Source: Rickettsiales bacterium
Lineage (GTDB): Bacteria > Pseudomonadota > Alphaproteobacteria > Rickettsiales > JBIKYU01
Assembly (NCBI GenBank): GCA_044355085.1
Contig: JBIKYU010000001.1
Location: 3,177 to 67,176 of the forward strand
Direction: 5' to 3'
Length of the DNA: 64,000 nucleotides
Shown in pieces: positions 27,998 through 29,320 of the stretch. The first letter of the stretch is position 1. Every line of letters begins with the position of its first letter. A model generated the notes under the pieces. That model saw nothing but the letters and a program-made list of their open reading frames with translations. It did not search any database and was not told the DNA's origin. A program made the position numbers and the translations under genes.

Positions 27998-29320
27998 ATG
28001 AAAGAAATAAATAAAGCGTTTGAAAATATAAGCACCCCTGAAAAAATTCTAGCGTTGCACCGAGAACTTCAGGAGGAGCCAGAAATTAGCCGCCTTAATC
28101 TGGCAGGCAATCACATCTACGACCCAGAAGCAACAGCAGCTTTGGGCCAATTGTTGCGACAGAACCAACAAATTACAAACCTTGATCTAAGTTATAATTT
28201 TATAACAAGCACGAAAAAAATAGAAGCTTTGGGCGCGGCTTTGCAGGACACTAAAGTTACCAGCCTTGATCTAAGTTATAATATCATCGAAAGCTCAGAA
28301 ACATTAATCGCTTTGCGTGATTTGTTGCTAAAGAACCCACAAATTAACAGGCTTGATCTGGTACGCAATGATATCGACAGTCCAGAAAAAATAGAAGCTT
28401 TGGGCGCGGCTTTGAAGGGTACTAATGTTAACAGCCTTAATCTGACAAGCAATTCAATCAAAACCCCAAAAAAAATAGCAGCTTTGCGTGAATTGTTGCG
28501 ACAGAACCCACAAATTACTAGCCTTGATCTTTCGCATACTGGCCTTCCTGGACATGAATTATTATCGCTTGTGAGGGAGTTTCGCCAGCTTCATCATGTA
28601 GGAATTGATGGTGAGCTGCCAGAAATAGCAGGACAATTGCGATTCAACAGGGTTTTACACAGGGTTTTAACCATAAAGGCAGTGGTTCGTACGCTTTGGA
28701 GAAATAGCCCTAATCTACATTCAGATTTAGTTCGTCCGATATTGGATCTAGCAGGAGTGACAATGGGATTGGCTCCTAATGAAGCAGCCCGTTTAATTGC
28801 TGAGGCCACAGCTCCTGCATTTAATTTTCAGCAGGGGAATCCGAATGCAATATCATTTGACGCAGCAGAAGGTGGAATACCAAGAATTTCAATTACGTTT
28901 GAGAGCGGCGATGGGCTTAGCGAGTTCACAGAAAAAAACGACAATACTTTTAGCATGCTTAGAGAGCTTGGCGCAATAGTTGAGGATTCTGGGCGTGGAG
29001 TTGAAATCATCGCGCCCAATACAAGGGGCGGCATTCTTCGCGGCGAAATGGTTGCAATTCGAAAGGAACTAACTCCTCTTTGGCGAAGACTAGAAGATAG
29101 CCGCAGTGATGCTGCGCCTTCTGCAGGTGCGGCCGCCGCAGCTCCCGGTCGTACAAGCCAATTGGGAAGCGCCGCCCCTTTGATGGGGTTGCCAAACTTG
29201 GATGAAAGCAATGAAGAGAAAGCCGCCGCAGCTCTTGGCCGAGATCAACAGCCAGTTGGTCAGCACGCACGAAGAATTGCTGAACAAAAGGCTGAAAGCC
29301 AGTGTTGCAGGATCTGCTAA
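27998..29320 (+). CDS. leucine-rich repeat protein, ribonuclease-inhibitor (RI/NLR)-type repeats; putative secreted effector
   Basis: About six alternating 28/29-aa repeats (ITNLDLSYNFITSTKKIEALGAALQDTK / VTSLDLSYNIIESSETLIALRDLLLKNPQ ...). The C-terminus is A/G/P-rich and ends GRDQQPVGQHARRIAEQKAESQCCRIC. Confidence 0.85.
   Translation: MKEINKAFENISTPEKILALHRELQEEPEISRLNLAGNHIYDPEATAALGQLLRQNQQITNLDLSYNFITSTKKIEALGAALQDTKVTSLDLSYNIIESSETLIALRDLLLKNPQINRLDLVRNDIDSPEKIEALGAALKGTNVNSLNLTSNSIKTPKKIAALRELLRQNPQITSLDLSHTGLPGHELLSLVREFRQLHHVGIDGELPEIAGQLRFNRVLHRVLTIKAVVRTLWRNSPNLHSDLVRPILDLAGVTMGLAPNEAARLIAEATAPAFNFQQGNPNAISFDAAEGGIPRISITFESGDGLSEFTEKNDNTFSMLRELGAIVEDSGRGVEIIAPNTRGGILRGEMVAIRKELTPLWRRLEDSRSDAAPSAGAAAAAPGRTSQLGSAAPLMGLPNLDESNEEKAAAALGRDQQPVGQHARRIAEQKAESQCCRIC
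28085..28595 (+). repeat. intragenic tandem LRR units (about 84-87 bp each)
   Basis: Recurring LDLSxNxI...IxALxxxLxxNxx units are visible in the translation. The DNA motif gaagctttgggcgcggctttg recurs at about 28224 and 28393. Confidence 0.8.

Follow-up and report, generated by a model that had tools for sequence, protein, structure and literature searches.

A conserved C-terminal CaaX box in a small repeat-protein family of an uncultured freshwater alphaproteobacterium suggests effectors prenylated by a eukaryotic host

Does a bacterial leucine-rich repeat (LRR) protein that ends in the residues CCRIC carry a working signal for prenylation by a eukaryotic host, or do its terminal cysteines only resemble one? 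The question is raised by a 440-amino-acid protein encoded by an open reading frame (ORF) at 27998-29320 (+) in a 64,000-nucleotide stretch of contig JBIKYU010000001.1 (Rickettsiales bacterium, assembly GCA_044355085.1, positions 3,177 to 67,176), hereafter called the window. An initial annotation of this DNA read the C-terminal end, AESQCCRIC-stop (...GQHARRIAEQKAESQCCRIC), as a CaaX-type box with an extra upstream cysteine and a basic patch ahead of it. It regarded the box as an addition to a C-terminus otherwise shared with a neighbouring ankyrin-repeat (ANK) paralogue, and it named conservation among relatives as a way to check the idea. The motif itself is borne out by the raw sequence and the ORF list, and a database protein, P0001, is 100% identical to the LRR protein of the window.

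The last codons of the gene are CAG (29300-29302, Q435), TGT (29303-29305, C436), TGC (29306-29308, C437), AGG (R438), ATC (I439), TGC (29315-29317, C440) and the stop TAA (29318-29320). The CaaX box is thus C437-R-I-C440 (29306-29317, +), in which family conservation and the fit to farnesyltransferase (FTase) rules mark Cys437 as the predicted prenyl acceptor. The adjoining Cys436 (29303-29305, +), at position -5 counted from the C-terminus, is a candidate site of S-acylation (palmitoylation), as suggested by the cysteine found at this position in the family and by the precedent of Salmonella SifA. A terminator-like hairpin with an 11-bp stem and a T tail lies at 29355-29379, 35 nucleotides 3' of the stop codon (terminator scan), and seven full-length homologues share their aligned end position with the LRR protein of the window. 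Both features indicate a true C-terminus, as opposed to one created by a frameshift.

The LRR family is small and appears to be lineage specific. A search of 5.8 billion clustered proteins returned eight members, and a filter-free search of 1.84 billion representative proteins, with the central domain plus the tail as query, added two more, making ten proteins in all in the public collections searched. The second of these searches gave seven matches in all, every one from this family. Eight of the ten proteins end in C-x-[I/L]-[C/L/Q]. Four have CRIC (P0001, ESQCCRIC; P0005, SSFCCRIC; P0011, ESPCCRIC; P0003, SSSSCRIC), one has CTIC (P0004, GSVCCTIC), two have CNLL (P0002 and P0010, both SSSCCNLL) and one has CSLQ (P0006, GSPCCSLQ). 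The remaining two, P0007 and P0008, end in AAAANRH and AAAANNR, respectively. P0009, a 99%-identical copy of P0003 from another assembly (an ENA sample), keeps CRIC.

Conservation within the eight CaaX-ending tails is confined to particular columns. Counted from the C-terminus, cysteine occupies position -4 in all eight and position -5 in seven, position -2 (a2) is always Ile or Leu, and position -7 is always Ser. Position -3 (a1) varies among Arg, Asn, Thr and Ser, position -1 (X) is Cys, Leu or Gln, and position -6 and the stretch from -8 to -15 show free variation. The exception at -5 is P0003, together with its copy P0009, in which a serine replaces the upstream cysteine (SCRIC), leaving a single cysteine and identifying the CaaX Cys as the conserved core. 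At no point in the eight proteins is a2 an Asp, Glu, Lys or Arg, or X a Lys, Pro or Arg. The check named in the initial annotation thus came out in favour of a conserved box, in a family whose members share merely 43-56% identity over the whole protein.

The invariant serine at -7 (Ser434 in the window protein, 29297-29299) lies three residues ahead of the CaaX Cys, where CaaX rules do not demand a serine. It might serve as a phosphorylation switch or provide context for S-acylation.

The same preferences appear in experimental studies of prenyltransferases. In a complete yeast CXXX screen, FTase was limited mainly by Asp, Glu, Lys or Arg at a2 and by Lys, Pro or Arg at X, with tolerance at a1 (PMC10320760). 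Ras-based data identify Ile at a2 as a positive determinant, and CKQC, with Cys at X, was 100% farnesylated (PMC10320760). The canonical profile of geranylgeranyltransferase I (GGTase-I) is Cx[V/I/L][L/F/I/M/V], which CNLL matches, and Ile or Val at a2 permits cleavage by the protease Rce1 (PMC11304957). On these position rules, CRIC, CTIC and CSLQ are predicted to be farnesyl-type boxes and CNLL a geranylgeranyl-type box.

P0010, a gene fragment of 122 amino acids, matches residues 320-440 of the window protein at 90% identity but ends in CCNLL instead of CCRIC. It lies on a 4,995-nucleotide contig (IMG 3300059473) beside a 548-amino-acid ANK gene and the LRR gene of P0005, which together form a second LRR/ANK cluster. 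Set against the window protein, P0010 represents a switch from a predicted farnesyl-type to a predicted geranylgeranyl-type box between close paralogues.

A single CaaX-like ending in a genome could be accidental. Cysteine makes up 1.15% of the residues in the long ORFs of the window. Only one of its 52 ORFs of at least 150 amino acids, the LRR ORF, has a cysteine at position -4. Among the 207 ORFs of at least 60 amino acids there are four such cases, and in none of the other three is a2 aliphatic. Across a whole genome a few accidental C-x-x-x endings would nevertheless be expected, and it is the conservation in homologues that provides the decisive evidence.

The architecture of the LRR protein places the box at the end of a flexible tail. 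Residues 1-200 (27998-28597, +) form a ribonuclease-inhibitor-type LRR solenoid of about seven repeats of 28 or 29 amino acids, as indicated by Pfam, DNA repeats, AlphaFold and Foldseek. Pfam LRR_1 scores above its cut-off and LRR_6 is also matched, and the repeat period in the DNA is 84/87 nucleotides, typical of this LRR type. AlphaFold confidence, given as the predicted local distance difference test (pLDDT), is 91-97 for residues 1-180 and 84-88 for residues 181-200. The best Foldseek match in the PDB is LegL7, an LRR protein of Legionella pneumophila (3goz; E 1e-6; 24% identity over 226 columns), followed by cytosolic LRR proteins of eukaryotes, namely NLRP proteins and ribonuclease inhibitor. 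The likeness to Legionella LegL proteins exists at the level of the fold only, as sequence searches gave the ten family members and no homology to LegL proteins.

The solenoid is followed by a family-specific central α/β domain (residues 201-372; 28598-29113, +) with invariant APAFNFQ.GN and ISITF motifs (alignments A1 and A4). Its pLDDT is 63-83 in the full-length AlphaFold model, and modelling the domain alone gave a mean of 57, too low for a fold search. The rest of the protein up to the terminal cysteines is an Ala/Gln/Pro-rich tail (residues 373-435; 29114-29302, +) containing modules common to the paralogues, LPxLDExNxEKAAA and GRxQQPVGQH. The last 68 residues (373-440) are predicted to be disordered (AlphaFold pLDDT below 50), and the tail of the LRR protein is consequently expected to be accessible to modifying enzymes.

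These features point to a mechanism that begins with delivery into a eukaryotic cell. The LRR protein, which has no signal peptide, would reach the cytosol of a eukaryotic host, probably a protist, through a contact-dependent secretion system. There, host FTase (for CRIC, CTIC and CSLQ) or GGTase-I (for CNLL) would attach an isoprenoid to the cysteine at -4, so that Cys437 of the window protein would be farnesylated. The aliphatic a2 residue would let Rce1 remove the last three residues (-RIC), and the new C-terminus would then be carboxymethylated. Next, Cys436 would be S-acylated to provide a second membrane signal, as in RhoB or SifA, with no polybasic patch in that role. The outcome would be an LRR module for protein binding, anchored at a host or vacuolar membrane through a flexible linker of about 65 residues.

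Host proteins offer a model for the second lipid. In RhoB (CCKVL) and in H- and N-Ras, a cysteine at or near the upstream side of the CaaX Cys is palmitoylated and acts as a second membrane signal that replaces a polybasic stretch. A polybasic second signal of the K-Ras4B type was also considered for the LRR family and was ruled out, as upstream charge is not conserved. Across the family, the last 15 residues contain one to three Lys or Arg and have a net charge of -1 to +2, and the net charge of the last 30 residues is 0 to +2. The basic patch described in the initial annotation therefore does not survive comparison with the relatives.

Taken together, the LRR protein is one of a few lineage-specific, eukaryote-like repeat proteins, built on LRR or ANK repeats, and the box that ends most of their disordered tails is probably a functional CaaX box prenylated by the host. 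The analysis establishes the motif, its rule-conforming conservation across the family, the predicted disorder of the tail, the eukaryote-like fold and the bacterial setting of the gene, whereas secretion, the host, the two lipids and the destination membrane are inferred. The family proteins would then probably be injected effectors that borrow the host prenylation machinery. The weight of this proposal depends on how far the conserved ending can be explained in other ways, and the DNA around the 3' ends of the genes bears on that point.

The stop codon of the LRR gene opens a conserved 3' flank of about 160 nucleotides (29318-29480, +) that includes the terminator-like hairpin. These 163 nucleotides are 93% identical to a second copy, likewise with a hairpin, behind the ANK gene (30950-31112, +). 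The same element and hairpin also follow three family genes from a related population: those of P0008 (L081, 2484-2640) and P0011 (L084, 8968-9130), and a fragment at a contig end whose product ends in ...SAVGSPCCSLQ (L083, 12010-12146, minus strand). Behind these five genes the non-coding flank is 90-93% identical, which exceeds the conservation of the coding tails ahead of it. The five-way alignment is least conserved over the terminal 10-15 codons, which have a well-conserved block on either side. The stop codon is nevertheless always exactly three codons past the CaaX Cys, and the gene ending in CCSLQ keeps this distance despite a 3-nucleotide length difference relative to the flank. Among members with available DNA, the box shows synonymous changes at both cysteines (TGC/TGT), at the arginine (AGG/AGA) and at the stop (TAA/TAG).

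This flank is the main argument for an explanation in which the conservation is historical and not selected, with a recently duplicated or gene-converted 3' cassette passing on one fortuitous cysteine ending. The flank is more conserved than the coding tail, and the members can all be traced to one or two closely related populations (IMG 3300059473 and ENA ERZ27272075), as such a history would predict. Against it, the most diverged stretch, between the conserved blocks, still retains the TGT-TGC pair and its distance of three codons from the stop. The aaX residues also differ among members (RIC, TIC, NLL and SLQ), and each version is still predicted to be compatible with a prenyltransferase. 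The synonymous substitutions at Cys and Arg codons, the compensated length change and the low protein identity argue in the same direction, leaving purely historical conservation quite unlikely.

The terminal Cys-Cys could instead serve the bacterium itself, for instance by binding metal, in redox chemistry, as a disulfide tether, or as part of a C-terminal signal read by the cell's own secretion or quality-control machinery, with the likeness to CaaX being coincidental. C-terminal tails frequently hold secretion signals, the window contains no translocation apparatus, the host is presumed, and the Ser at -7 and the CC pair show little or no variation, beyond what CaaX rules require. A metal site, however, would have too few ligands, with only two conserved cysteines and the third (X) replaced by Leu or Gln. 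The exact three-residue spacing to the stop, the restriction of a2 to Ile or Leu and the free a1 are specific predictions of a CaaX box, and we know of no bacterial system that requires this combination. The position-specific pattern of a free a1, Ile or Leu at a2 and an X accepted by prenyltransferases argues against a bacterium-internal role and a homogenised cassette alike, and an internal role for the cysteines is unlikely.

CCXXX is also one of the C-terminal patterns found among Rab GTPases, and the presence of CC in seven of the eight CaaX-ending members could be taken to mean double geranylgeranylation by Rab geranylgeranyltransferase (Rab GGTase, or GGTase-II). This enzyme acts on Rab proteins, which are brought to it by Rab escort protein through recognition of their GTPase fold. 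The window protein consists of an LRR solenoid, a family-specific central domain and the tail, without a GTPase domain, and P0003 and P0009 lack the second cysteine, making a Rab-type motif highly improbable.

Several observations weigh against host prenylation itself. Three members, P0007, P0008 and the ANK protein, end in AAAN-x-[R/H] in place of CaaX, so the box is optional within the family. The members represent paralogues or strain variants of a single lake population, and their 3' ends, including the non-coding flank, are at least 90% identical, which implies gene conversion or recent duplication and inflates the apparent number of independent CaaX observations. Structural genes for type III, type IV or type VI secretion systems (T3SS, T4SS and T6SS) were not found in the 64-kb window, in which the neighbouring genes are housekeeping genes. 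A host-associated lifestyle is suggested by a neighbour-joining tree of one gene, prolyl-tRNA synthetase (ProRS), calculated without support values, which makes the placement with protist symbionts weak. The window also carries genes for arginine, pyrimidine, pantothenate and lipid A biosynthesis, indicating a genome that is not strongly reduced.

The ANK gene (29663-30952, +) encodes a 429-amino-acid paralogue with the same first ~15 residues, tail modules and 3' flank as the LRR gene, and its repeats match Pfam Ank with E values of 1e-35 to 1e-23. The ANK and LRR proteins have in common a GR[DN]QQPVGQH module (BLASTP E 1e-5), encoded at 29222-29283 and 30845-30906 with 82% DNA identity. The ANK protein ends in AAANRR (30929-30952). 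The initial annotation was right about both the common preceding module and this ending, whereas its picture of CaaX as a simple add-on gives way to two conserved alternative endings. The A-A-A-N-x-[R/H] ending recurs in P0007 (AAANRH) and P0008 (AAANNR), and these endings are homologous in DNA (GCC GCA GCT AAT A.. CGT TAA). A single module, ...HTQSVVAARSA, has three continuations: GSVCCTIC in P0004, GSPCCSLQ in P0006 and IENAPAAAANNR in P0008. S-x-C-C-a-a-X and A-A-A-N-x-[R/H] thus look, from their alignment, like two alternative terminal cassettes that share the tail modules ahead of them and the 3' flank behind them. To our knowledge, the AAANRR-type ending matches no known targeting motif.

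The tails themselves vary in a modular way. The ANK tail contains an internal duplication (30665-30693 and 30797-30825) that encodes a GLQGFA module. Related modules of the form [ST]RFAExIAxSRNAQAAA recur in P0002, P0007, P0008 and P0011, suggesting that the tails are mosaics of short shuffled modules. The C-terminal 200 residues of the ANK protein that lie outside the ANK repeats gave zero matches as a protein query, the protein itself included. A profile of ten aligned tails gave no match at E ≤ 10, for which low-complexity composition is the probable cause, and it revealed no additional types of N-terminal domain attached to this tail.

A conserved 5' flank lies upstream of the ANK gene (29481-29662, +; alignment A6), and a shorter version of about 90 nucleotides precedes the LRR gene (~27908-27997). 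Around 190 nucleotides 5' of the ANK gene closely match the regions upstream of P0008 and P0011, with similarity running into the first ~15 codons. Flank and first codons together cover 29481-29707 and ~27908-28040 in the window, 1310-1545 in L081 and 8150-8380 in L084. The ANK protein starts with MRSQNRSSQNYKTHE and the LRR-family consensus is MRELNKSxQNINTPE (alignment A7), giving a common pattern of M-R-x-x-N-[RK]-S-x-Q-N-x-x-T-x-E. Between the common ends, the body consists of LRR plus central domain, LRR only (P0008 and P0011) or ANK repeats. From these comparisons, repeat domains appear to be swapped within a common expression frame, which may double as a secretion-signal frame.

Two details of the flanks can be added. 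The 5' flank contains a TTGACA-like box, and the 3' flank holds the small palindromes GCGCCAAGCGC and TTCTAGAA. An Rfam scan of 26500-31400 found tRNA-Ala and one sub-threshold chance match in the 3' flank, and nothing else. Possible reasons for the conservation of the 3' flank are gene conversion, a regulatory element common to the copies and a cassette that recombines.

Family copies occupy at least five distinct housekeeping contexts: next to tRNA-Ala/TatB and LolCDE in the window, a LysM-M23 peptidase and TsaD, ZnuABC, DsbA/ScsC with ABC-transporter genes, and, as the fifth, the 4,995-nucleotide contig with the truncated LRR fragment, the 548-amino-acid ANK gene and an LRR gene. A wider and more tentative reading is that these genes form a cassette-type effector family in an uncultured, Holosporales-related freshwater symbiont. 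The conserved flanks, together with the first ~15 codons on the 5' side and the tail modules on the 3' side, would frame an interchangeable host-binding domain (LRR or ANK) and an interchangeable C-terminal address (farnesyl CaaX, geranylgeranyl CaaX or AAAN-x-[R/H]). We regard this as possible rather than probable. Such effectors may be delivered by the atypical T6SS of the lineage.

The window has a G+C content of 44.7%, and ordinary alphaproteobacterial housekeeping genes surround the LRR gene. An origin of this gene from a eukaryote or a giant virus was considered and is ruled out by these surroundings. The ProRS of the window is at most 66% identical to that of any species-representative genome, the best being a metagenome-assembled genome labelled 'uncultured Rickettsiales'. 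In the ProRS tree (81 sequences), the window pairs with this genome, and the clade around the pair contains Odyssella, Paracaedibacter symbiosus and Finniella, Holosporales that live as obligate symbionts of protists (PMC11909080). Searching species-representative genomes with the family alignment found no relative, and a search of JGI metagenome contigs gave a single weak, generic LRR match.

The relatives come from lake plankton. P0005, P0010 and P0011 lie on contigs of IMG 3300059473, with near-identical copies in ENA assembly ERZ27272075, and IMG 3300059473 is a 20-year co-assembly from Lake Mendota (PMC11374980). Holosporales live in obligate association with eukaryotes, mostly protists, and almost all sequenced genomes of the group encode an atypical T6SS (PMC11909080). 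The same recent review reports that experimental data on secreted molecules do not exist for Holosporales (PMC11909080).

The closest parallels are found in Legionella. AnkB and the Pel/CMP proteins of this bacterium combine eukaryote-like domains (ANK, F-box or LRR) with a C-terminal CaaX, and lipidation by FTase or GGTase-I of the host anchors them on host or vacuolar membranes (PMC2916131, PMC13081727). The initial annotation had cited AnkB as ending in CLVC. The actual box is CVLC, and the farnesylation of AnkB by the host holds in both mammalian cells and Dictyostelium (PMC2916131). CVLC and the CRIC of the window protein are alike in having Cys at X, and the solved structure closest to the LRR domain likewise belongs to a Legionella protein, LegL7. 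Unlike the Legionella CaaX effectors, the window protein belongs to an alphaproteobacterium and not a gammaproteobacterium, has no homology to them beyond the generic LRR fold, and lies in a window without Dot/Icm or any other secretion system. In the family described here, CaaX recurs across paralogues with common 5' and 3' cassettes and predicted FTase- and GGTase-type variants, whereas the Legionella effectors are described as individually named proteins (PMC13081727).

Salmonella offers a second parallel. SifA, a type III effector, is both prenylated at its CaaX Cys and S-acylated (PMC4951486), the same two-lipid logic predicted here for C437 and C436. It differs from the window protein in fold, secretion system and organism, and its modifications are established experimentally, whereas those of the window protein are predicted. 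The CaaX of Salmonella GtgE likewise enhances membrane association (PMC13423502). RhoB and H- and N-Ras are host GTPases, and the window protein, a bacterial LRR protein, would only mimic their C-terminus. By analogy, we infer that the LRR protein works like AnkB/Pel, SifA and GtgE, though it is not homologous to them.

Alternative endings have a counterpart as well. The AnkB of the Legionella Paris strain has a di-lysine endoplasmic reticulum retention signal instead of CaaX (PMC5506055), which parallels the alternation between CaaX and AAAN-x-[R/H]. The comparison differs in that the AAANRR-type ending has no match to a known targeting motif.

Host prenylation of bacterial effectors has so far been shown experimentally mainly in Legionella and Salmonella. 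If the proposal is correct, CaaX mimicry would extend to protist symbionts through an uncultured alphaproteobacterium of lake plankton. The combination of a repeat domain, a disordered tail and a CaaX box would then provide a sequence handle for effector candidates in metagenomes from lineages without known effectors. The family also constitutes a natural experiment, with one tail carrying farnesyl-type, geranylgeranyl-type and non-lipid endings, in which the relation between ending and membrane destination is directly testable. The main source of interest is the architecture of the cassettes at the level of the family, together with the lineage in which they occur. If the cassette reading also holds, the family would supply the first candidates for host-lipidated effectors among symbionts of a lineage for which the recent review found no experimental data on secreted molecules (PMC11909080).

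Some other genes of the window deserve mention. The ORFs at 39064-40263 (+), 213-977 (-) and 61477-62259 (+), of 254-399 amino acids, could be assigned to no Pfam or NCBIfam family. A neighbouring pair of ORFs at 59529-61375 (-), each encoding about 300 amino acids, carry prepilin-type N-terminal cleavage/methylation motifs and appear pseudopilin-like, with no other family match.

Immediately upstream of the LRR gene, a 121-amino-acid ORF (27190-27555, -) has a signal-peptide-like N-terminus and matches the Rap1a T6SS immunity family (Pfam E 1.1e-12). Its presence is a hint that the lineage either possesses a T6SS or is exposed to one. The ORF ends in CQPQ, an accidental cysteine at -4. At a distance of 1.1 kb on the upstream side of the LRR gene there is a tRNA-Ala(TGC) gene (26773-26848, +), which a listed ORF (26769-27221) overlaps. 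The real gene there is probably at 26877-27221 (+) and TatB-like, with a Rickettsia-type TatB model as its best NCBIfam match, below the cut-off. The tRNA beside the Rap1a/LRR/ANK block could mark the boundary of a genomic island, although the G+C content runs on without a clear break.

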